Origin: a virus
Taxonomy: Duplodnaviria; Heunggongvirae; Uroviricota; Caudoviricetes
Length of the DNA stretch: 39,764 nucleotides
Strand: one strand, 5' to 3'
Virus record (IMG/VR): IMGVR_UViG_3300032167_000069
Shown: positions 24,439 to 39,764 of the stretch, piece after piece
Layout: every line of letters starts with the position of its first letter
Numbering within the stretch: position 1 is the first letter of the stretch
The notes under the pieces: generated by a model
Told to the model about the DNA's origin: nothing
The model's database searches: none
Seen by the model: the letters and a program-made list of their open reading frames with translations, nothing else
Made by a program: the position numbers and the translations under genes

Positions 24439-27400
24439 ATGACAACTACAGAATTTTTAGGTCTTATTCTTACTGATAGAACTGAAACTTCTATGCCGTT
24501 TTTAGAGTGGAGAACTTTAATGAATGGCACGGATGGAAACTCCAATATGGAGCTCATTGACGGTGCAATCAGTAGATTAAACACCGCAATCGGTGGAAAG
24601 GCTGATGGATTTAGTTTTAGCCCTGATACCGGTGTTTTACAGTTGACAAGTGACGGTGTACCTATTGATGGAGCATCTGTTACAATCAACTTAAACAACT
24701 ATTATACAAAAACAGAAGTTGATGAAATATTAGCAGAGCTTGAGGAAAGCTTTGCAAACAACGAAACCATTCAGGCTCTTATGGCTTCTGCTGTAAGCGA
24801 CTTGGAATGGGATGAAACAAGCCGAGCTCTTACAATGTACAATATGAACGGAGAGCAAATCGGTGATACCATCACAATCGAAGGTGGTGGCGGCGGTGGC
24901 ACAGGTACATCATATAGCGTCCGTATTATTAATGGAATGCCATCAAGTACATTTACTGCTGCTACTTCTGCAAAAACAATTATAAAAGCAACCTTTTATG
25001 AATACTACGGCACAGATTCAACGGGTGTTAATGGTACATTAGAGGTTACTTACAAGCTTTCAACAGATGAGACTTGGCTGTCATTAGGAAAGCAGACAGT
25101 TCAACAGGGTGTACCTTTTAGCATTGACGTAACAGATATTTTGACCGAAGGCAAGACAACAAGTATTAAGTTCACAGTTGTCGGTGGCGAGTCTGAAATT
25201 ACACGTTCTTTGACATATAATGTTACTCAGGTTGAAGCAAGTATCGCTGCCGTTAATTTTGATACTGCCGCAGTATATACTGGTAATGTTAGTTTTCAGT
25301 ATAAGTGCGTAGGTAGAAATCTGCAAAAGACAGTTTACTTTATGATTGATGGCGAGGAATATACACACGTTGACGTGGGCACAAGCCACAATACAACTTT
25401 AACACAGCCAATCGAAATGGCTGGAAACTACGACTATGGCGCTCACGATTTTCAGGTTTATTTTGAAACAGCGGACGGGGCTTTATCAAACATTCTCAAC
25501 TTTACACTCTTATATAACGATGGAAGCTCTACCGAACCTATGATTGGTGTTATATTAGATGACGACACGGTAACTTACGGTGATACAATCACTGCAACAT
25601 ATGTTGTATATACACCAAATCAGGAAACTACTGACGAATTAAATATTCGTGTGTATGCAATTAATGAAGATGGTGAAGAGGAAAACTATTTTTCTCAACA
25701 CCTTGTAAATATTGATAACAATACCGCTTATGAATGGCAGGGCACACTTTACCCTGAGTCTGGCACTGCTTATATTGAATTTACAAGCGGAAATACCGAA
25801 AAGACTGTTTCTGTTCAGGTAAATGAAATTCAGAGCGAATATGACCTCGACCAAATTGAAACAGGGCTTGTATATCAGTACAACGCAGCCGGAAGAAGTA
25901 ATAATGATAGTTCTAAAGATACTTATACTTGTGAATATACAACAAGCAACGGTGTTACAACCAACATCAAAGGTTTGTTTGACGGATTTAACTGGGTATC
26001 TAATGGATATGTTGATGGTGAATCATTAACATTAAGTGGAACCGCTGTTCATACAATCAAACTTCCTATGTTCTCTACGAGTTATGTAGATGATGATGGT
26101 CAAACAATTAATCTTGAAAGTGCAACTGGTGCAACGGTTACAACAAATGGTCGTACTTTTGAAATTGATTTTCAGGTTTCAAACGTAACAGATATAAATG
26201 CACAGATCATTAAGTGTATGTCTTCCGACCACGCAGGTTTTATCGTTACACCTCAGACTTGTTATTTACTTTCTTCAAATGGTGCAAATGTTGCACTTGA
26301 TGACACAGGCTTCATTGAAAATGAGGAAAGTATTGCCGCTGCATATATAAAAGACAACAAACGTATAAGATTAAGCTTTGTAATTGAACCTACTGGTTCA
26401 GTTGAATATACAGATTCAGAGGGAACTACGCACACAGGTCAGTGTGTTAATATTTATATTAACGGTCAGTTTGCAAATTCATTCCCTTATGAAGATAATG
26501 CAAGATTTGCTCAAAGTGAATACATAACACTGGGAAGCAATACTTGTATTATGAATGTTTATGATGTAAGAATTTATAATCGTGGATTGTCAACAACTGA
26601 AATTATGCAGAACTATAAAGCTTCTCCTCTTTCTGTTCAAGACAGAATTGTTCGTTTTGAGGATAATGACGTATTAACAGACGAGGGTGATGTTGATTAT
26701 AATAAAGCGATTTATAAATATCCTTGCCTCCTTATTACTGGTTCATTGTCACCTTATAAGGGCGCTAACGGTATCAAGACAGAAGGTAAAACCGAAGCTG
26801 GAGCAACTCTTACAAAGCCTGACGGAAACGGCGGATATAGTGTAGAGTTTGATTTGCTTGATAAAGATTCAGATGGCGTATGGGTAAGTTCTAATAACGT
26901 TCAGGGTACATCTTCTGTTAAATTCCCTATCAAAAACTACAAAGTATATCTTGCTAAGAATGAGGTAGGAGAAGATGGGACTGTTACCAAGAAGAAGGTT
27001 AAGTATTCATTAAAAGGTGTCGATGAGGATGGAAATGATATTTCAATCGGTGAAAGCACACTTTGTTGGAAAGGCGATTATATGTCTTCTGACCACGCCA
27101 ATACTTTTAATGCAAATCTTGCTGACACACTTTTTGACGATGTTCTTATTTCTCAAAACCCGTCTCTTGGCGGAGATAGTAGAGTTCAGAATACCATTTA
27201 TGGTTTCCGTTGCTTATTGTTCCGTAGAGACGACATTGGTGAAAATATCGAATTTATTGGCGATGGTGCATTAAATAATGATAAAGGAAACACTGCGACA
27301 TTTGGACTTGAGTGTGACGGAGATGAAGGTAATGATACACTTCGTCAGAAATGGGAGTTCTTAAATAACACAGAAGCTCTATGTTCTTTCTTAACCGACA

Positions 27401-30400
27401 GATTCTTTGAATTAGTCGATGGAAAGAAAAGAGTTCTTGCAGGATTAGAGTCGACCTATCCAGACCAAGGTGATTTGAAAGACGAGGGACTCGAACCAAA
27501 ATATGACCACCTCCAAGTTCTCTATACTTGGGTATGTCAGAGAGCTAATTTCTGGGACGCATCTACGGAAACGCTTAGCGTTCCTTTGGTATATAAAGGT
27601 GTGTCATACACTACCGAAAGAGATTATCGTAAGGCGATCTTTATTAATGAATTTGAACTTCATTTTAATAAAAATCACGCACTTATTTATTATCTCTTCA
27701 ATGAATTTGTTGCATTGTGTGATAACCGTGCAAAGAATATGTTTTTACGTTGTGAGGATGTTCGTTGTGAACAGCTTCTTAATACAAGTGGCGAAGAGAT
27801 GTCAATCTATGATGCAATCAATATGGAAACAGGTGAAGTTGATGCAAGTATGATTGACTGGGAAAATTCCACTTTCGCAGTATGGATTTGTGACCTTTAT
27901 GACCTTGACTCCTGCTTCGGTGTTGAAAACTCAGGTTATATGCAGATTCCGTACTACGCTGACTGGCATTATCATCTCAACGGTACACAAAAATTTAATG
28001 GTCGTGAATCTGTTTTCTGGTTAATGTTTGAAGAAGCCCTTGCTGATGAAATTGAAGATAAGGCACAGTTGCTTACTGACCGTTCAAGTGGAAACGGTGG
28101 ACTTAACTACGAATCGCTTTACGATTATCACATTAAAAATAATGCTATGCTTGTATGCCCCGCTGTTGTAAACCGAGATATGGAACATAAATATAGCGAT
28201 CCTTGGACAGAGGGTTATGTAGATTATGCTTCCGAGGGACATCCTGTGCGCCATATTTCAGACTACAAATACTTACAGCGTGGTAGCAGAACAGAGCAGA
28301 AGGACGCATTTATATATAGACGTTCCAATATGCTTTACAGCAAATATAAATGTAATAAATTCCTTAATAACAATATAAACTTCCGTGTCGGTACAAATGG
28401 CGGTGTACTTGCAACAGATAGCGGTATTACTGTAACTGCTTCACAAGCATTATACCCTGCTGTTAAATACGGCGATGGTGATGCGGCAGTAATTTCAGTT
28501 GAAAAGACCGCAGCAGGCATTCCTGTAACAATCACTAAGCCGGGTACAACGACCGCTGATAAGGTTGGTTTCTCTGATACCGTATATATCGCAGGTGGAA
28601 CATTCCTGACTGATATTGGAGATATTTCAAAATTCCGTCCTTACGAATTACAGTTACAGAATGCAACAGGATTGAAGAAGCTTACAATTGGCTCTTCTGA
28701 AGATGGTTATACCAATGCACAGCTCAAGAGTATTGATACTTCTGGTTGTAAGATACTTGAAGAATTAAATATTATGGGTTGCACTTCTCTTGGAACAGTT
28801 AATCTGTCAAAGAATGGTCTTATCCGTAAAATTTATGCAGGAAATTCAAGTGCTTCTTCGATTTCACTTCCTAACGGCGGTATCTTAGAAGAATTGTATT
28901 TAGGTACGGTTTCAGATATTGAAATTTTAAATCATACTCACCTTGAAGCGTTTACTTGCGATAGCTATGCTAACTTAACTGCTTTGAGAGTTGAAAATAC
29001 ACCTAACGTTCCTACAATGGAAATGGTGGCTGAACGCTTACCATATTTAACTGGCGGACTACGTTTGGTTGGCATTGACGAAACAATCGAGGATACGAAA
29101 GTTCTCGAAATGTTGTTAAGTGATGATGCTCTTGGTAAATATATTGACAATAATGGTGTCTTATCTGAAAGTAAAACAATTTATCCGTTTATTTCAGGAA
29201 CAATTCACTGCGATACAATTGGTTCTTACTTGAAGTCTGAACTTGAAAAAGTATATCCAAATTTAGTGATTGATGCTACAAGTGTTGTTCAGCAATATGT
29301 CGTTACTTTTGTTAACTATGATGGCTCAACTCTTGATAAACAGTATGTAATTCGTGGTGGTAGAGCAGAAGACCCGACAACGAGAGAAGATAATCCTATC
29401 GCAACTCCTACACGTCCAAGTACAGTATCTACAAACTACACCTTTGATGGCTGGGATACCGATTTAACAACAACAGTTGTTAGTTCTGATTTGACTGTTA
29501 GTGCTATATATTCAGAAACAACACGTCAATATACAGTGAAATGGTATAACGGTTCAACATTACTTCAAAAATCAACTGTTTTATACGGTGAAGGTGCTGA
29601 ATATACAGGCGACATCCCTGAAGATACGTCTCAGGAAGAATATCTGTCTTACAGACTATTCGACGGATGGGATAATAACACAGGTTCTATTGAAGGCGAT
29701 TTAGATGTACACGCTAAATTTACTGAAGCAGTAGCTCCAACAGATAAGGCTTTAAGCGAAATGACACCAACTGAACTCTATGCTCTTATCAAAACAGGCA
29801 AACTCTCTCCTTCTGGTGAGAATAATGATGTTATTACAAGCGGTGATGAGTTTGACTTGGTAATGGGTCACGACCTTGACTTTGACAACGTTGAAAGTAC
29901 TGAATTCATTGCACTTGGCGATACTAAGACATTCGATGGAACTTCTGGTTCAATAATCAATACTGGCGTAAACTTGTTTGACGAGGATAAATCTTTCGTA
30001 TTAGCTATTGATTTCTCATTCAGCGATACGACTACTGGTGCAACTCTTGCTTCTTGTTATCAGAATAATATGGGCTTTAAGTTGACATATACCGGTAGCG
30101 GTGCGGCTGTAAAATACGGTTCAACTAATTCAACTGCTGTTGCATCTCAGCTTGACAGAGAAATGGTTGTTATTCGTCATATTAAAGGCGATACAAACTT
30201 ATATGTTTATGGCTCTAACAAGATGAAGAGTATGGTCGTTAGTAAAGTAACCAGAACACTTTCAAGTATTCAGGACGCTCCATTAGCGTTTGGTTGTACT
30301 ATGGAAAGCGATGGATATAAAGATGAATACGCTAAAGGTAAGATATATTGGGCTAAATTATGGATGTCTGACTTAGGTGAGACAAACTGTAAGAAGCTGG

Positions 30401-30984
30401 CTGCTTGGACAAGAGAAACTCTTACTATGCAGGCGGCAGGAACTTCTGAAAACGCTTTCAGATTGTTTACTGGTACAGATGACGGTCGTTACTGCAACTG
30501 TGCTTTCTTGATGAAGAATTTGCTTGATAAGACACACGTTATGAACACCTCTAACGTCAACTCTGGCGGTTGGAAGGAATGTAATATGCGTGCTTGGTTA
30601 ACATCTCGTGTTCCCAATGGATTGCCTGCTCAGTGGCAGCTTATTCTCAAGAAGGTTGATGTAAGGTCAAGTACGGGTAATATGACTACAACTGATTTCA
30701 GTACGTCGAGCGACTATGTATGGATACCGTCTGCAAAAGAAGTTAATTTCTCTGCAACCACTGCTCCTTATTCTGGTGAAAGTGATGGCAAAATCAATTT
30801 CTTTACAGACAATAACAGTAGAATCAAGTACCTTAATAACGGTGCGGGTGCGGTTTACTATTGGTGGCTTCGTTCTCCGAGTGCTAGCTACACTACCAGC
30901 TTCTACCATGTCGTTACTACAGGTAGCTACACCAGCACCAACGCCAGCAACTCGTATGGCGTTTGCTTCGGCTTCTGTATTTAA
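24439..30984 (+). CDS. Giant tail fibre/adhesin and DGR1 target: LamG-like, CotH-kinase-like, LRR, InlB-B-like repeats and C-terminal C-type-lectin-fold (DUF6273-like) domain
   Basis: 2181 aa. DNRAKN and YDLDSCFG motifs (27721-27921); LRR-like stretch about 28600-29100; two YxVxF/W...FDGW repeats about 29295-29730; ends in WWLRSP...GVCFGFCI, which contains the VR. Confidence 0.85.
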   Translation: MTTTEFLGLILTDRTETSMPFLEWRTLMNGTDGNSNMELIDGAISRLNTAIGGKADGFSFSPDTGVLQLTSDGVPIDGASVTINLNNYYTKTEVDEILAELEESFANNETIQALMASAVSDLEWDETSRALTMYNMNGEQIGDTITIEGGGGGGTGTSYSVRIINGMPSSTFTAATSAKTIIKATFYEYYGTDSTGVNGTLEVTYKLSTDETWLSLGKQTVQQGVPFSIDVTDILTEGKTTSIKFTVVGGESEITRSLTYNVTQVEASIAAVNFDTAAVYTGNVSFQYKCVGRNLQKTVYFMIDGEEYTHVDVGTSHNTTLTQPIEMAGNYDYGAHDFQVYFETADGALSNILNFTLLYNDGSSTEPMIGVILDDDTVTYGDTITATYVVYTPNQETTDELNIRVYAINEDGEEENYFSQHLVNIDNNTAYEWQGTLYPESGTAYIEFTSGNTEKTVSVQVNEIQSEYDLDQIETGLVYQYNAAGRSNNDSSKDTYTCEYTTSNGVTTNIKGLFDGFNWVSNGYVDGESLTLSGTAVHTIKLPMFSTSYVDDDGQTINLESATGATVTTNGRTFEIDFQVSNVTDINAQIIKCMSSDHAGFIVTPQTCYLLSSNGANVALDDTGFIENEESIAAAYIKDNKRIRLSFVIEPTGSVEYTDSEGTTHTGQCVNIYINGQFANSFPYEDNARFAQSEYITLGSNTCIMNVYDVRIYNRGLSTTEIMQNYKASPLSVQDRIVRFEDNDVLTDEGDVDYNKAIYKYPCLLITGSLSPYKGANGIKTEGKTEAGATLTKPDGNGGYSVEFDLLDKDSDGVWVSSNNVQGTSSVKFPIKNYKVYLAKNEVGEDGTVTKKKVKYSLKGVDEDGNDISIGESTLCWKGDYMSSDHANTFNANLADTLFDDVLISQNPSLGGDSRVQNTIYGFRCLLFRRDDIGENIEFIGDGALNNDKGNTATFGLECDGDEGNDTLRQKWEFLNNTEALCSFLTDRFFELVDGKKRVLAGLESTYPDQGDLKDEGLEPKYDHLQVLYTWVCQRANFWDASTETLSVPLVYKGVSYTTERDYRKAIFINEFELHFNKNHALIYYLFNEFVALCDNRAKNMFLRCEDVRCEQLLNTSGEEMSIYDAINMETGEVDASMIDWENSTFAVWICDLYDLDSCFGVENSGYMQIPYYADWHYHLNGTQKFNGRESVFWLMFEEALADEIEDKAQLLTDRSSGNGGLNYESLYDYHIKNNAMLVCPAVVNRDMEHKYSDPWTEGYVDYASEGHPVRHISDYKYLQRGSRTEQKDAFIYRRSNMLYSKYKCNKFLNNNINFRVGTNGGVLATDSGITVTASQALYPAVKYGDGDAAVISVEKTAAGIPVTITKPGTTTADKVGFSDTVYIAGGTFLTDIGDISKFRPYELQLQNATGLKKLTIGSSEDGYTNAQLKSIDTSGCKILEELNIMGCTSLGTVNLSKNGLIRKIYAGNSSASSISLPNGGILEELYLGTVSDIEILNHTHLEAFTCDSYANLTALRVENTPNVPTMEMVAERLPYLTGGLRLVGIDETIEDTKVLEMLLSDDALGKYIDNNGVLSESKTIYPFISGTIHCDTIGSYLKSELEKVYPNLVIDATSVVQQYVVTFVNYDGSTLDKQYVIRGGRAEDPTTREDNPIATPTRPSTVSTNYTFDGWDTDLTTTVVSSDLTVSAIYSETTRQYTVKWYNGSTLLQKSTVLYGEGAEYTGDIPEDTSQEEYLSYRLFDGWDNNTGSIEGDLDVHAKFTEAVAPTDKALSEMTPTELYALIKTGKLSPSGENNDVITSGDEFDLVMGHDLDFDNVESTEFIALGDTKTFDGTSGSIINTGVNLFDEDKSFVLAIDFSFSDTTTGATLASCYQNNMGFKLTYTGSGAAVKYGSTNSTAVASQLDREMVVIRHIKGDTNLYVYGSNKMKSMVVSKVTRTLSSIQDAPLAFGCTMESDGYKDEYAKGKIYWAKLWMSDLGETNCKKLAAWTRETLTMQAAGTSENAFRLFTGTDDGRYCNCAFLMKNLLDKTHVMNTSNVNSGGWKECNMRAWLTSRVPNGLPAQWQLILKKVDVRSSTGNMTTTDFSTSSDYVWIPSAKEVNFSATTAPYSGESDGKINFFTDNNSRIKYLNNGAGAVYYWWLRSPSASYTTSFYHVVTTGSYTSTNASNSYGVCFGFCI
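30848..30978 (+). repeat. DGR1 variable repeat (VR)
   Basis: 131-bp ungapped match to 31608-31738 with 15 mismatches, all opposite TR adenines. Confidence 0.97.
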
Positions 30985-31561: not shown

Positions 31562-31975
31562 TGGGGTTTGTTCTACACGTTTTCTTTGTTTGTATGAGAC
31601 TTTGTTCGTGCGGTTTACAATTGGTGGCTTCGTTCTCCGAATGCAAGCAACACTACCAACTTCTACAATGTCAATACAACAGGTAGCAACAACAACAACA
31701 ACGCCAGCAACTCGAATGGCGTTTGCTTCGGATTCTGTGGGCGACAAACAATATTGTCGTATATCAAGATCAGACAAAGTAACTTCATTTGAAGCGAAAT
31801 CAGTATCTACTACAGAAGGAGAGCAAATCCCTCCTACTAAGGTAAACAGATGCCCTGATATGACTGACCGGACGCTGCTTGCATGGTTTTGTGATGGTAT
31901 TAACAAAATTTCATGGTCATTGTTATCGGCAACCACTTATACCAAACAGGAAACTGTATGTTGTACAGGGCATAT
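31562..31975 (+). ncRNA. Putative DGR1 RNA (leader-TR-structured spacer)
   Basis: GGGGTTTGTT (31563-31572) is complementary to AGCAAATCCC (31822-31831); ATGCCCTG (31850-31857) pairs with CAGGGCAT (31966-31973); several local hairpins. Confidence 0.65.
31608..31738 (+). repeat. DGR1 template repeat (TR1)
   Basis: Non-coding copy of the VR with 39 adenines, rich in AAC/AAT including (AAC)5. Confidence 0.97.
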
Positions 31976-31986
31976 TGAGGTGAAAA

Positions 31987-33114
31987 ATGACGAGCGAAGA
32001 AAGAAAAGAGGTAAGATATCAACGCAGAAAAGCTAAACGCATAAAAGCGAAGCAAAAGCGCAACTTACAATTTGATAATTTTGAAAGTGTATTTACTTAT
32101 GACCATCTTTTTGATGCTTATAGGAAATGTCGCAGAAACGTCAGATGGAAATCAAGCACTCAAAAATACATAGCTAATGCACCATTAAATGTTCTTGAAG
32201 CATATCAAAAGCTACATAATGGAACGTTTAAAAGTGATGGTTTTTACGAATTTGACTTATATGAAAGAGGAAAACCTCGACATATACGGAGTGTTACTAT
32301 GGCTGAAAGAGTTGTTCAACGATGTTTGTGCGACCACTCTCTTGTTCCTGTTTTAACGAACACATTTATTTATGACAATGGTGCCAGTCTAAAAGATAAA
32401 GGTTACAGTTTTGCAGTTAATCGTATCATACGACATATACATTGGCACTATCGAAATTACGGAAGTACAGGATATGTTTTACTATTTGATTTTTCAAGTT
32501 TCTTTGATAGTATTCCACATACTTTAATCAAAGAAATACTTGCCGAGGAATACACCGACAAAAGACTTATTGCACTTATTGAACATTTCGTAGATATGTT
32601 CGGTGACATAGGGCTTGGATTAGGAAGTCAAATATCTCAAGTTTTGGCTCTTGCTTCAGCAAACAGATTAGACCATTTTGTAAAAGAAAAGTTGCAAATT
32701 AAATGCTACGGAAGATATATGGATGATGGTTACTTAATTCATCACGACAAACAATATTTGATTGAATGCTTAGAAAAGTTAAAACAAAAATGTGATGAGC
32801 TCGGATTAAATCTAAACTTAAAGAAAACACACATTGTTCCATTAACCAGAGATTTTCAGTGGTTGAAAATTAAATTCAGACTTACTGACTCTGGATATAT
32901 TGTAAAAAGGGTTTGGAAGAAAAGTGTTGTTCGTATGCGTAGAAAAATGAAAAAATTAAAGAAAAAGCTTGATGCTGGGTTGGTAACATTCCCTGATATC
33001 GTCGCATCGTATGAATCGTGGAAAAGTCATACACTAAAGCTTAATGTATATAAGACTATTTCCTCTATGGATAAATTGTATTTTACCTTATTTCAAAGAG
33101 AGGTGACTGTATGA
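31987..33114 (+). CDS. DGR reverse transcriptase 1
   Basis: 375 aa; LFDFSSFF, GLGLGSQISQ (DGR-type GxxxSQ) and YGRYMDD motifs; basic C-terminus; no endonuclease domain. Confidence 0.97.
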   Translation: MTSEERKEVRYQRRKAKRIKAKQKRNLQFDNFESVFTYDHLFDAYRKCRRNVRWKSSTQKYIANAPLNVLEAYQKLHNGTFKSDGFYEFDLYERGKPRHIRSVTMAERVVQRCLCDHSLVPVLTNTFIYDNGASLKDKGYSFAVNRIIRHIHWHYRNYGSTGYVLLFDFSSFFDSIPHTLIKEILAEEYTDKRLIALIEHFVDMFGDIGLGLGSQISQVLALASANRLDHFVKEKLQIKCYGRYMDDGYLIHHDKQYLIECLEKLKQKCDELGLNLNLKKTHIVPLTRDFQWLKIKFRLTDSGYIVKRVWKKSVVRMRRKMKKLKKKLDAGLVTFPDIVASYESWKSHTLKLNVYKTISSMDKLYFTLFQREVTV

Positions 33115-33893
33115 ACTTTTATAAAGTCGTTTTAAACGATAAGATTATAGACGTTCTTGAAAATCCTGCTTGGGTAAAACAAAGCAAAAATGGCTTGATA
33201 GTTCTCTGTGAGGTTACAGAAGCAATTGGTATTGTTTCATCTGATTCAGAAACAATTCTACATATTGAAGGCAAACCGCCTTTTTCTAATGCTGAATATC
33301 AAGATGTCATTTTGGCTGATATTACCGAGGATGAAGCCGAAGAGCTTAAAGTTCTATTAAATTTGGGTGCTGATATAACCGATTCCGATGAAAATGTTGA
33401 ATGGACTGAGGACGAGGTAGTTGAAGAGCCAATTGAAGAGGATGCTACTTTAGCTGAAGTTAAAGAACGTCATTTGGAAAGGCTCAGTAACGATTGCCAG
33501 AACACTATATATGCTGGTATCAATGTTACATTAACCGATGGCTCTGTTCGTCACTTTGATTTGGAGATTGAAGACCAACTTAATTTGCTAACTTTGTCAA
33601 CACTGGTGGCAACTGGAGAAACTTCTATTCCTTATCACGCTTCGGACGAACTTTGCACTTATTACAGTGTTGAAGATATATTAAAAATAATTGACACCGC
33701 AACAGTTTTCAAAACATATCATACTTCCTATTACAACAGCTTAAAAAACTGGGTTATGTCTATGGATAGTATCGCAGAGGTTGGAAATGTTGTTTACGGT
33801 GTAGAAATTCCGCCTGAATACTGTTCCGAGGTTCTATTGGAGCTTATGCAAAAGTTAAGTGCAGAAGGTGTTGTAAATGAAATGGCTGAGTAA
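33111..33893 (+). CDS. DUF4376-like protein (putative tail fibre assembly factor)
   Basis: 260 aa, ATGA overlap with the RT1 stop; C-terminal LAEVKERHLERLSNDCQNTIYAG...HFDLEIEDQLNL pattern. Confidence 0.55.
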   Translation: MNFYKVVLNDKIIDVLENPAWVKQSKNGLIVLCEVTEAIGIVSSDSETILHIEGKPPFSNAEYQDVILADITEDEAEELKVLLNLGADITDSDENVEWTEDEVVEEPIEEDATLAEVKERHLERLSNDCQNTIYAGINVTLTDGSVRHFDLEIEDQLNLLTLSTLVATGETSIPYHASDELCTYYSVEDILKIIDTATVFKTYHTSYYNSLKNWVMSMDSIAEVGNVVYGVEIPPEYCSEVLLELMQKLSAEGVVNEMAE

Positions 33894-34305
33894 GCATTTC
33901 GTTCTCTTTCTGATAGGCGGAACTTTATATATCATCATTGAAATTATATGGAGAAAGATATTTGGAAGTCAACCCACTCATTGGACTATGTTTCTACTGG
34001 GTGGATTGGCTTTTATATTTATTGGATTAATCAACGAATATTTACCGTGGAAAACTCCACTTTGGCTTCAATGTTTGATAGGAACTCTTTTGGTACTCTT
34101 ACTTGAATTTGTTTTTGGATGCGTATTAAATTTATGGTTAAATCTCAATATTTGGGATTATTCCAACACTCCATTTAACATCTTAGGACAAGTTTGTCTG
34201 CCATTTGCTTTTGCTTGGTATTTCTTAACCGCAGTTGCAATTATATTGGACGACTACCTAAGATATTGGCTATTCAACGAAGAGAAACCAAAATATTATA
34301 TTTAA
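33877..34305 (+). CDS. Four-TM membrane protein (ABC_trans_CmpB-like family)
   Basis: LFLIGGTLYIIIEIIWR...THWTMFLLGG...WDYSNTPFNILGQVCLPF motif. Confidence 0.75.
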   Translation: MKWLSKHFVLFLIGGTLYIIIEIIWRKIFGSQPTHWTMFLLGGLAFIFIGLINEYLPWKTPLWLQCLIGTLLVLLLEFVFGCVLNLWLNLNIWDYSNTPFNILGQVCLPFAFAWYFLTAVAIILDDYLRYWLFNEEKPKYYI

Positions 34306-34317
34306 GGAGCGTTATGA

Positions 34318-34731
34318 ATGAATCAAAGGTCTCAGGAAATTTTTAATAAGAACGACGAACTAAAAGTAATCGTTCTCACTAAAAGGCTTATAAAGCACAC
34401 AATGAAACTTACAAATAATTCTGAACGCTATCCTAAGAAAGCACGATTTACTCTTGTTGACCCAATGCAGAAAACTGTCATTGAAATATACAAACTTTTA
34501 ATGAAAGCAAATTATATGAACACAAATATAAAAGCCCAGTTTGACAGAAGACAACTCTGTCAGTCTGAGGCTATTTATATGTGTGATATTCTTTTGCTCT
34601 ACATTGAGCTTTCACTTGATGAAAATTATATAAATGACAAGAGCTGCGAGTATTGGGTTAGACAGGTTATGGATGTAAAAAGAATGATACTGTCGTGGAA
34701 AAATGCAGACAGTAAACGTTCTAATTTTTAA
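34318..34731 (+). CDS. avd: DGR accessory variability determinant (Avd-like), copy 2
   Basis: 137 aa; ELKVIVLTKRLIKHT...YPKKARFTLVDPMQ...YWVRQVMDVKRMILSWK; directly upstream of a TR-like sequence and an RT. Confidence 0.9.
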   Translation: MNQRSQEIFNKNDELKVIVLTKRLIKHTMKLTNNSERYPKKARFTLVDPMQKTVIEIYKLLMKANYMNTNIKAQFDRRQLCQSEAIYMCDILLLYIELSLDENYINDKSCEYWVRQVMDVKRMILSWKNADSKRSNF

Positions 34732-34738
34732 TATACAT

Positions 34739-34960
34739 TGGGGTATGTTTTGAAATATTGCTCCGTTCTCCCAATGCCGACAATGGTTACAACGTCAGGT
34801 ACGTCAATCGTGACGGTGATTACAACTATTGCAATGCGTATAATGGCATTTTGGGTGTCCGTCCCGCTTCGGTGATATGATTAGACTAAGTAAGCAATAG
34901 GCTGAAAACAACATCTTCACTACCAAAGGAAAGCATATCCCGTCCTTTATAGGATAAATA
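34739..34960 (+). ncRNA. Putative DGR2 RNA scaffold
   Basis: GGGGTATGTT (34740-34749) is complementary to AGCATATCCC (34932-34941); the spacer aligns with the DGR1 spacer. Confidence 0.65.
34761..34870 (+). repeat. DGR2 template repeat (TR2), boundaries approximate
   Basis: Non-coding segment between avd2 and RT2 that translates as LRSPNADNGYNVRYVNRDGDYNYCNAYNGILGVRPAS, in the same lectin-fold register as TR1. Confidence 0.85.
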
Positions 34961-35034
34961 CAAAACCGTTGATGCACTGTGTCTTTGAACACTGGCTATA
35001 CACAATGGAAACTGAATTTAAGGAGTATGAGAAA

Positions 35035-36141
35035 ATGTACGAAGAAATTTATGGATTTTCAAATATAAAACGAGCATTTTATAATTCTCGGCACGGCAAG
35101 CTTAATAATCCTTCTGCAAACAAATTTGAAATTAATATGCTTACTGAATGCGTGCAATTATCTGATGAATTAAAAGATAGACATTACTCTACTGGGAAAT
35201 CAAACAAATTTACTGTTTATTATCCCAAAGAAAGAAATATAGAGTCCTGCCCTTTTAAAGATAAGATAGTTCAACATTCGTATTGTGACAACGTTTTATA
35301 TCCTATGGTTTGCAACAAATTTATATATGACAATTATGCGTCACAATTTGGTAAAGGAATTCATTTTGGTTTGGATAGATTACAGGGGCATTTACGTCAC
35401 TATTTCTTTTCAAACAAAGCCGCTGCTGAAAAATATAGAAGAGAAAATAATTTACCTTTCGTGCCGGTTGAGCAAGGTCATTATGCTGACGGGTGGATTT
35501 TAAAGTGTGATATTAAAAAATTCTTTGCTCACATCAACCACGATTTGGTAAAAGAGAAGATACATAAATTATTCGACAATGCAGATATCGAATGGCTATC
35601 TAATATCATTATTGATTCTGTCAGCATAGATAATGGTGTTGGACTCCCTATCGGGTATCAAAGCAGTCAATTATACGCCTTAATATTACTTAATGATATG
35701 GATCATCTTATAAAAGAAAAATTACATATTAAAGGCTACGGCAGATATGTTGATGATTTTTATTTAATACACAAAGACAAAGCATATTTGCAATATTGCC
35801 TCAAAGTCATTACCGACTATTTGACGGAGTATGGTTTGGAGCTTAATAAGAAAACACAAATTCTTCCGATGAAGAACGGAATTGACTTTCTGGGATTTCA
35901 TACCTATCTGACAGATACGGGTAAGGTGGTCTGCAAGCTTCGTAAAAGAAGCAAGGAGAATGTTAAACGCAAATTAAAGAAATTTGCAAAATGTTACAGT
36001 GAGGGCACGATGACTATGAGAAAAATCAAGGATTCGTATTGTAGTTGGCGTGCCCACGCTTCATATGGAAATACATATCATTTAATTCGTAAAATGGACA
36101 ACTATTATTTTGAATTATTTGGTCAGCATTTTAATGATTGA
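35035..36141 (+). CDS. DGR reverse transcriptase 2
   Basis: LKCDIKKFF, GLPIGYQSSQ and YGRYVDD motifs. ATG at 35035 has an AAGGAG SD; alternative in-frame starts at 34969 and 35005. Confidence 0.95.
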   Translation: MYEEIYGFSNIKRAFYNSRHGKLNNPSANKFEINMLTECVQLSDELKDRHYSTGKSNKFTVYYPKERNIESCPFKDKIVQHSYCDNVLYPMVCNKFIYDNYASQFGKGIHFGLDRLQGHLRHYFFSNKAAAEKYRRENNLPFVPVEQGHYADGWILKCDIKKFFAHINHDLVKEKIHKLFDNADIEWLSNIIIDSVSIDNGVGLPIGYQSSQLYALILLNDMDHLIKEKLHIKGYGRYVDDFYLIHKDKAYLQYCLKVITDYLTEYGLELNKKTQILPMKNGIDFLGFHTYLTDTGKVVCKLRKRSKENVKRKLKKFAKCYSEGTMTMRKIKDSYCSWRAHASYGNTYHLIRKMDNYYFELFGQHFND

Positions 36142-38765: not shown

Positions 38766-38893
38766 ATTTTATTATTCCGTTCCTCTGTGAACGCAAAGTC
38801 GAGGTTTTATCCGACGCAATTTATATATCACGATGGTGCTATGTAGTTGTGTCGGATTTTTTTGCGCCATCAGAAAGGAGGAACTGTACTCAA

Positions 38894-39764
38894 TTGCCAA
38901 CATTTAAGAACACCCAGAGAGGAACGTGGTACTGCAAGTTCTATTATACTGATTGGACGGGTGCTCGAAAGCAAAAGAAAAAGGAAGGTTTTGCGACCAA
39001 ACGAGAATCTCAAGAATGGGAGCGAAATTTCCTTAATAGTTGTAGTGTTGATTCGGATATAACCTTTGAAAACTTCTGTGTGAAGTATATGGAGCATTGT
39101 AAAGCTCGTCTGAAACCTACCACTTATGAAAACAAGTGTTATATGATTCGAGATAAAGTGTTGCCATATTTCAAAAATATGAAATTAAAGGATATTAAGG
39201 CAAGTACATTACGCACGTGGCAGGATAAGCTTATTACGCACAAAAACGGCTATTCTCAGACGTATTTGAAGACGATTAATAATCAGATGTCGGCTATCCT
39301 AAACTTCGCTGTAAACAACGAATATATCGCTTCTAACCCTATGCACAGATGTGGAAGTATGGGTAAGAAGTATGCAGAGGAATTATTGTTCTGGACAATA
39401 GACGAGTTTAAAGAGTTTTACGAAGTAATAAAAGACAAGCCTATGTCAGAGGTTATCTTCCCTTTATTCTTTTACAGCGGAATGAGAGAAGGAGAATTGC
39501 TTGCTTTGACGCTTAACGATTTTGATTTTGATAGAAATACGGTTAGTATTAACAAGAGCTTTGTGCGGTTTAACGGTCAGGATTTGATACAGACACCTAA
39601 AACACCTAAGAGTAAAAGGGTTGTAACTTTGCCTGAGCAAATAATGGATTTGGTAAAAAAATATGCAGATAAACTCTACGGATATGACCCATCCGACAGA
39701 TTGTTTACCTGCACAAAAAGTTATTTATCACACGAAATGATTCGAGGTTGTAATTTATCAGGTG
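38894..39764 (+). CDS. int: Tyrosine integrase with N-terminal arm-binding domain (3' truncated by the window)
   Basis: TTG behind AAAGGAGG; MPTFKNTQRGTWYCKFYYTDWTGARKQKKKEGFATKRE... then YSGMREGELLALT (catalytic Arg motif); frame open to the window end. Confidence 0.93.
   Translation, partial: MPTFKNTQRGTWYCKFYYTDWTGARKQKKKEGFATKRESQEWERNFLNSCSVDSDITFENFCVKYMEHCKARLKPTTYENKCYMIRDKVLPYFKNMKLKDIKASTLRTWQDKLITHKNGYSQTYLKTINNQMSAILNFAVNNEYIASNPMHRCGSMGKKYAEELLFWTIDEFKEFYEVIKDKPMSEVIFPLFFYSGMREGELLALTLNDFDFDRNTVSINKSFVRFNGQDLIQTPKTPKSKRVVTLPEQIMDLVKKYADKLYGYDPSDRLFTCTKSYLSHEMIRGCNLSG

Follow-up and report, generated by a model that had tools for sequence, protein, structure and literature searches.

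Our analysis indicates that DGR2, the cassette formed by avd2, the template repeat TR2, a spacer and RT2, is very probably an intact and active DGR whose only detectable target is remote. The cassette lies in a 39,764-nt window (the whole stretch of DNA that was analysed), which is G000:C1:15371-55134 of a 96,872-bp linear IMG/VR record. This record is about 82% complete (CheckV), and the phage genome measures ~120 kb. The phage is temperate, because a tyrosine integrase lies in the window, and relatives of it are integrated in host contigs; in one of these, L063, host genes adjoin the same position as the window integrase. The phage clade consists of ~120-kb temperate phages, apparently of Clostridia. 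DGR1 and DGR2 stand in tandem downstream of the tail genes, and lysis genes, then the integrase, come after DGR2. The relevant features are the following:

30848..30978, + strand: VR1, target of DGR1, at the 3' end of a 2181-aa tail-fibre ORF (24439-30984; DUF6273, 2.7e-19)
31608..31738, + strand: TR1 of DGR1, with 15/15 mismatches against VR1 at TR adenines
31987..33114, + strand: RT1 of DGR1, 375 aa, with GLGLGSQISQ and YMDD
33111..34305, + strand: two ORFs between the cassettes, one of 260 aa without a family and one of 142 aa, a CmpB-like membrane protein
34318..34731, + strand: avd2, putative accessory variability determinant, 137 aa (Pfam bAvd PF22296, E 3.7e-5)
34758..34869, + strand: TR2, template repeat, 112 nt, with 24 A, 7 AAY codons and ungapped homology to VR2
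34870..35003, + strand: TR2-RT2 spacer, with conserved blocks in seven relatives
35005..36141, + strand: RT2, DGR-type reverse transcriptase, 378 aa from ATG (Pfam RVT_1, 2.1e-16)
38849..39763, + strand: tyrosine integrase, running off the window (Pfam Arm-DNA-bind_4, Phage_int_SAM_3, Phage_integrase)

The record carries two tyrosine recombinase genes. The Arm-binding integrase stands directly after the lysis module, and a 276-aa gene of the Phage_integrase family is found near the left end of the record (G000:C1 ~2.1-2.9 kb; L074:4997-5827).

RT2 shows the DGR-type motifs GLPIGYQSSQ ([LIV]GxxxSQ, motif 4) and a catalytic YVDD, an assignment based on motifs and the Pfam match. Its ORF opens at TTG 34969, with ATG 35005 as the likely start, and relatives at 60% identity or above occur in many phage and prophage contigs. 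The match of avd2 to bAvd PF22296 scores 24.6 bits, under the gathering score of 40; size, position and conservation in relatives would fit Avd, and the gene takes the same position in the relatives L001, L058, L060 and L063. The bounds of TR2 were set by homology to VR2 and fall inside the interval 34732-34880 assigned earlier; as shown by the DNA of P0123/L064, TR/VR homology stops exactly at ...CGTCCCGCTT. In-frame translation of the template-repeat-like segment gives LLRSPNADNGYNVRYVNRDGDYNYCNAYNGILGVRPA, with its 7 AAY codons. In the spacer, the blocks GACTNAGTA, CAAAGGAA..CATATCC, GGATAAATACA and CTATACAC are common to the seven relatives, and the base of a stem (GTCC…GGAT) is kept around an insert of 0 to ~80 nt. 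In L051 and L060 the loop of this stem has grown by ~80 nt with the flanking conserved blocks retained. By analogy with the spacer RNA of BPP-1, the spacer at 34870..35003 probably forms the 3' portion of the DGR RNA.

DGR1 is a conventional DGR that separately diversifies the tail-fibre tip, and its RT1 is 34% identical to RT2. TR2 was considered as a template for VR1 and rejected, in line with the earlier note, since no 60-nt register has fewer than 19 non-A mismatches. Neither of the two ORFs between the cassettes has a VR; homologues of these ORFs occur in L051, L060 and L063 but not in L001. In the relative L051 (188-7387; MAG contig CANBJR010000042.1), a VR1-type DUF6273 tip (…WWLRSP…GVAFGFCVG) closes the tail fibre, no avd1-TR1-RT1 cassette follows it, and DGR2 alone is nearby. 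DGR1 is therefore either an accessory that some members of this phage group lack, or it works from another site in the genome of L051.

In order to locate a variable repeat for TR2, adenine-wildcard scans of both strands were run with full-length TR2 and with 40-60-nt pieces, the kind of check that the earlier note had proposed. No VR2 was found in the 39,764-nt window, as that note had stated from inspection by eye; the best non-self match disagreed at 45 or more of 86 non-A positions, no better than chance. The same scan was equally empty over the whole 96,872-bp record. As a control of the method, a blastn TR/VR finder recovered adjacent VRs in nearly all of the more distant RT relatives L002-L042, and the negative result for TR2 is therefore not a method failure. 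We further found no VR within 10 kb either side of the cassette in seven relatives, and none in the 55-kb contig G001. Relatives in which RT2 is 60-79% identical and the same avd-TR-RT cassette occurs with no VR nearby include L001/G001, L051 (a Clostridia MAG), L058, L060, L062 and L063. The contexts of these cassettes differ: they lie beside lysis genes or beside dUTPase-Xis-integrase, with DGR1 present or absent. The whole RT2 clade has cassette and target in separate places. A short prophage remnant between host genes, L062:9700-11104, has an RT2-type RT and an intact-looking TR, no avd, and nrdD directly upstream on the other strand. A similarity search of GenBank phage DNA gave weak RT matches only.

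The partner of TR2 was found at the protein level. When the 43-aa TR2 peptide was searched against longer proteins, P0122 (293 aa, DUF6273) and P0123 (83 aa) were recovered. Where their segments depart from TR2-type peptides, N is replaced by S, G or F, D by G, and Y by C, as adenine mutagenesis would be expected to produce; a fixed tail (...PALKINPEILVSDEPDD.GYY...) follows the VR in both. With P0122 as query we retrieved 61 family members of 175-467 aa, mostly 284-294 aa, some of them on contigs of 97-124 kb; a related-loci search with P0122 in viral contigs returned no relative, and in a tblastn search of G000 and G001 TR2 was its sole match. One member, P0126, is encoded on a Logan contig from SRR27608065 (L072), and its VR occupies L072:10643-10754. 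Compared with window TR2 34758-34869, this VR has 14/14 mismatches at TR adenines and is identical at 88/88 non-A positions (hypergeometric P ~8e-12 for the adenine-only pattern). VR2 is a 112-nt segment that lies in frame in a 293-aa DUF6273 gene (P0126, P0122), close to its 3' end, and is followed by a fixed tail of ~40 aa (INPEILxSDEPDDxGYY...EDVSEEEL...). The earlier note had called TR2 an orphan template, a description that does not hold for a repeat which VR2 matches at every non-adenine position. The VR2 partner of the window is taken here from near-identical phage contigs of other samples, and not from the G000 record. TRs of other RT2-clade cassettes also match members of the target family when compared by eye as peptides: L051 with P0140/P0150, L060 with P0139, L058 with P0133, and L062 with P0155.

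To place VR2 on the phage map, we used contigs that reach beyond the ends of the record. The ENA scaffold scaffold_1190 (48,993 bp) matches G000 from 7945 down to 468 with 98.4% identity over 7.5 kb. Past G000 position 1, this scaffold has a Ro60-like gene, a Ubl module (487 aa, 296 aa, ThiF) and the 293-aa target, which is followed by a retron-type RT, Band_7 and pncA. The VR2 of this scaffold departs from window TR2 at 9 A sites and, synonymously, at 2 non-A positions; the two non-A differences probably reflect that strain's own TR. Relative to G000, VR2 is on the opposite strand and ~13.4 kb past the left end of the record, which amounts to a TR2-VR2 distance of ~63.5 kb leftward or ~56 kb rightward on a ~120-kb circle, with the two repeats almost diametrically opposite. 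No second VR copy for TR2 was detected in the 29.7-kb stretch around the target. For the same genome as the window, a short-word index look-up found that an 882-nt stretch 27,895 nt before the window start shares 57/67 words with P0126. The TR2-VR2 link for this genome rests on the near-identical contigs from other samples together with this look-up.

A scan with a TR2/VR2 pattern found a further contig, G003 (IMG/VR, 56,039 bp), among viral contigs, and gave no match in metagenome contigs. The first base of G003 is inside VR2, and its positions 1-109 have 8/8 mismatches against TR2 of G001 at TR adenines. G003 and G001 share a terminal overlap of 99-100% identity, and G003 10.4-55.9 kb is syntenic, in reversed orientation, with G000 96.3-55.8 kb. 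G001 and G003 are therefore two halves of one sister phage, in which TR2 and VR2 are ~60 kb apart. A remote non-structural phage gene, one of the targets which the earlier note had considered, is thus where VR2 is found, in phage contigs syntenic with this genome. TR2 had the look of an orphan since neither the window nor the trimmed IMG/VR record nor most metagenomic contigs extend as far as the target. The G000 record opens with about three tandem copies of a ~50-nt unit (TCCGCTTGTATAGT.GCGGTGTTCGGTTTGCGGTGTTGCCGCTCCG; G000:C1:1-130, 15.4 kb before the window), and the start of G001 falls within ~560 nt of the start of G000. The tandem copies could mark the place where the record was trimmed, or a contig break that they themselves caused.

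Assemblies also fail at the 112-nt TR2/VR2 repeat itself: the 56-kb G003 begins exactly at VR2, and in a 555-bp ENA scaffold, L064, the 5' flank of avd2/TR2 is fused to VR2 plus the target tail, which looks chimeric. Artefacts of this kind at TR/VR repeats would lead DGR surveys to call cassettes orphan.

Variation between samples points to activity of the cassette. VR2 was compared between samples, from contigs. The target genes of L072 and L077 are 99.5% identical outside the VR and 86.6% identical inside, and 13/15 VR differences are at TR-A positions. Between G003 and L064, 11/11 VR differences are at TR-A positions, with 2 differences in 250 nt of flank. This pattern appears to be the signature of repeated mutagenic homing, from which we infer retrohoming. 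Constraint on TR2 itself points the same way. Where TR2 codons differ between the window and L001, 15 changes are synonymous and 5 non-synonymous in the VR frame, and the same comparison in the other two frames gave 1:19 and 1:18, which indicates codon-level purifying selection on TR2. TR2 as a small translated ORF was rejected, because a 1-nt indel between the window and L001 disrupts the reading frame ahead of the repeat. Since the TR is not translated, codon constraint on it must be exerted by way of a VR. On the model of BPP-1, RT2 and Avd2 would copy the TR2-spacer RNA into cDNA, misincorporation would take place opposite template adenines during copying, and the mutated cDNA would then replace VR2.

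Three outcomes had been offered in the earlier note for the cassette: a remote phage gene, a host chromosomal gene, or a lost target. The first is the one borne out by VR2. That DGR2 rewrites, or also rewrites, a host chromosomal gene during lysogeny is very unlikely in our assessment. The phage is temperate and relatives are integrated in host contigs (L058, L062 and L063 with host flanks), and DUF6273 domains are common in Firmicutes proteins. However, no host target was seen: the 10-kb host flanks of L058, L062 and L063 are without a VR, and all VR2-type genes found sit in phage context. One bacterial MAG with a related cassette (G002, Clostridia, 2.2 Mb) likewise holds neither VR2 nor another DUF6273 gene by pattern, blastn or DUF6273 profile, which is weak evidence from an incomplete MAG.

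We regard it as highly improbable that TR2 is a relic, belonging to a DGR2 that lost its target and is decaying or kept for another reason. The empty scans of the window, of the 96.9-kb record and of the 10 kb either side of the cassette in seven relatives are what this explanation predicts; against it stand the adenine-only VR2 partner in L072, the differences of VR2 between samples at TR-A sites, the purifying selection on TR2, and an intact and conserved RT2, avd2 and spacer. The loss suggested in the earlier note is hence contradicted by a VR2 that exists and varies between samples at TR-adenine positions. An orphan DGR would have no VR anywhere in the complete genome, and here VR2 is in the part of the genome outside the 96.9-kb record. 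That the TR2/VR2 matches are assembly chimeras or a cross-sample coincidence is hardly conceivable: L064 does look chimeric and G003 does start exactly at VR2, but full-length targets with VR2 in natural context occur in the independent long contigs L072, L073, L077, L078, L079, L080 and L081, the 5' gene bodies of these targets are unrelated to the TR2 locus, and an adenine-only mismatch pattern cannot come from chimerism. We therefore retain the reading of DGR2 as an intact, very probably active cassette with a remote target in the same phage.

The target protein contains DUF6273 (PF19789, 3.5e-24) alone, and its PHROG match (4.6e-47) carries the annotation Hoc-like head decoration. Its AlphaFold model is weak (pLDDT 61.7), and the lone significant Foldseek PDB match is 9qa6, an IgA peptidase (E 5e-9). 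We consider it a putative small lectin-like protein, with the fold taken from Baykov et al. 2023 (PMC10743442) and not from our own model. Upstream sequence was readable in five contexts. In four of them (L072, L073, L077 and L080) a ThiF/E1-like gene precedes the target, whose start is 23 nt away; L081 lacks this ThiF/E1-like gene. This gene is the last of a three-gene Ubl module (~490 aa, ~300 aa, ThiF/E1-like) at L077:8538-11575, L072:6941-9978 and L080:6865-9978. Since the module ends 23 nt before the target, module and target gene are probably co-transcribed. In every context with readable downstream sequence, a retron-type RT follows the target:

L077:13681-14814: retron-type RT (PQGxPxSP, YADD)
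L072:12109-13242: retron-type RT (PQGxPxSP, YADD)
G003:C1:1133-2284: retron-type RT (PQGxPxSP, YADD)
L080:11219-12358: retron-type RT (PQGxPxSP, YADD)
L081:11770-12903: retron-type RT (PQGxPxSP, YADD)

Repeated structured non-coding units lie between the target gene and this RT. As the cognate RT of a DGR it was rejected: its motifs are PQGxPxSP and YADD, no TR stands beside it, and it is absent from the 96.9-kb record (G000:C1). We hold it unlikely that the target is, beyond a second receptor-binding protein, a DGR-diversified recognition subunit or substrate of a phage Ubl-conjugation system, an idea suggested by the ThiF/E1-like and retron-type RT neighbours and by the acidic, invariant character of the C-terminal tail after the VR. 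If true, hypermutation would be directed at a pathway inside the cell or one that tags virions, instead of at adsorption.

Collectively, our results suggest that a DGR cassette can lack a VR in its contig, and even in a viral record of 97 kb, without being an orphan, and that provirus trimming together with contig breaks or chimeras at the TR/VR repeat hides remote targets. They also describe one phage clade that runs two separate DGRs side by side, one for the tail-fibre tip and one for a putative small lectin-like protein half a genome away. This raises the questions of what the second diversified protein binds, and of how two sets of RT, Avd and RNA avoid cross-talk.

DGR2 resembles the prototype DGR of BPP-1 (mtd-avd-TR-brt) in the order of (here putative) Avd, TR, spacer and RT, in its adenine-specific mutagenesis, and in the placement of the VR, which is close to the 3' terminus of a gene for a ligand-binding protein and has a GC-rich end. 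In BPP-1, however, the target is a tail-fibre tip gene immediately upstream of avd, whereas the target of DGR2 is ~60 kb off, on the other strand and in a non-structural region. The VR of DGR2 is moreover followed by a fixed C-terminal tail of ~40 aa, and an informal look showed no IMH-like extension past the repeat and no evident downstream hairpin. Non-adjacent targets are documented: in phage-associated DGRs, such targets inside the prophage were recognized because they differ from the TR only by A-to-N changes (Wu et al. 2018, NAR, PMC5758913). The earlier note had ranked a remote target as the most unusual result, which does not hold in view of these cases. Nearly all of these non-adjacent targets were within 50 kb, and one target was usually adjacent (Wu et al. 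2018). DGR2 is like these cases in having a target in the same phage away from the RT, and unlike them in that the sole target is ~60 kb off with none adjacent, and in that the separation is conserved across the RT2 clade (at least 60% identity). Contig-based surveys that look only beside the RT miss remote targets (Roux et al. 2021).

The closest likeness for the target is tgt2 of the gut phages nd4 and nd12, proteins of 234-294 aa with DUF6273 only, modelled as C-type-lectin-like (Baykov et al. 2023, PMC10743442). Like the DGR2 target, tgt2 is a small DUF6273-only protein with a 3'-proximal VR and short flanking helices. In contrast, tgt2 lies inside its DGR cassette and shares one TR with a second target, a tentaclin, while the DGR2 target has its own dedicated, distant cassette and the tail fibre is served by the other DGR. 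In summary, the mechanism of DGR2 is that of a standard DGR and does not change what is known about DGRs. What is particular here is a sole target half a genome away, kept so across the clade, two DGRs in tandem, and a Ubl module and a retron-type RT beside the target.
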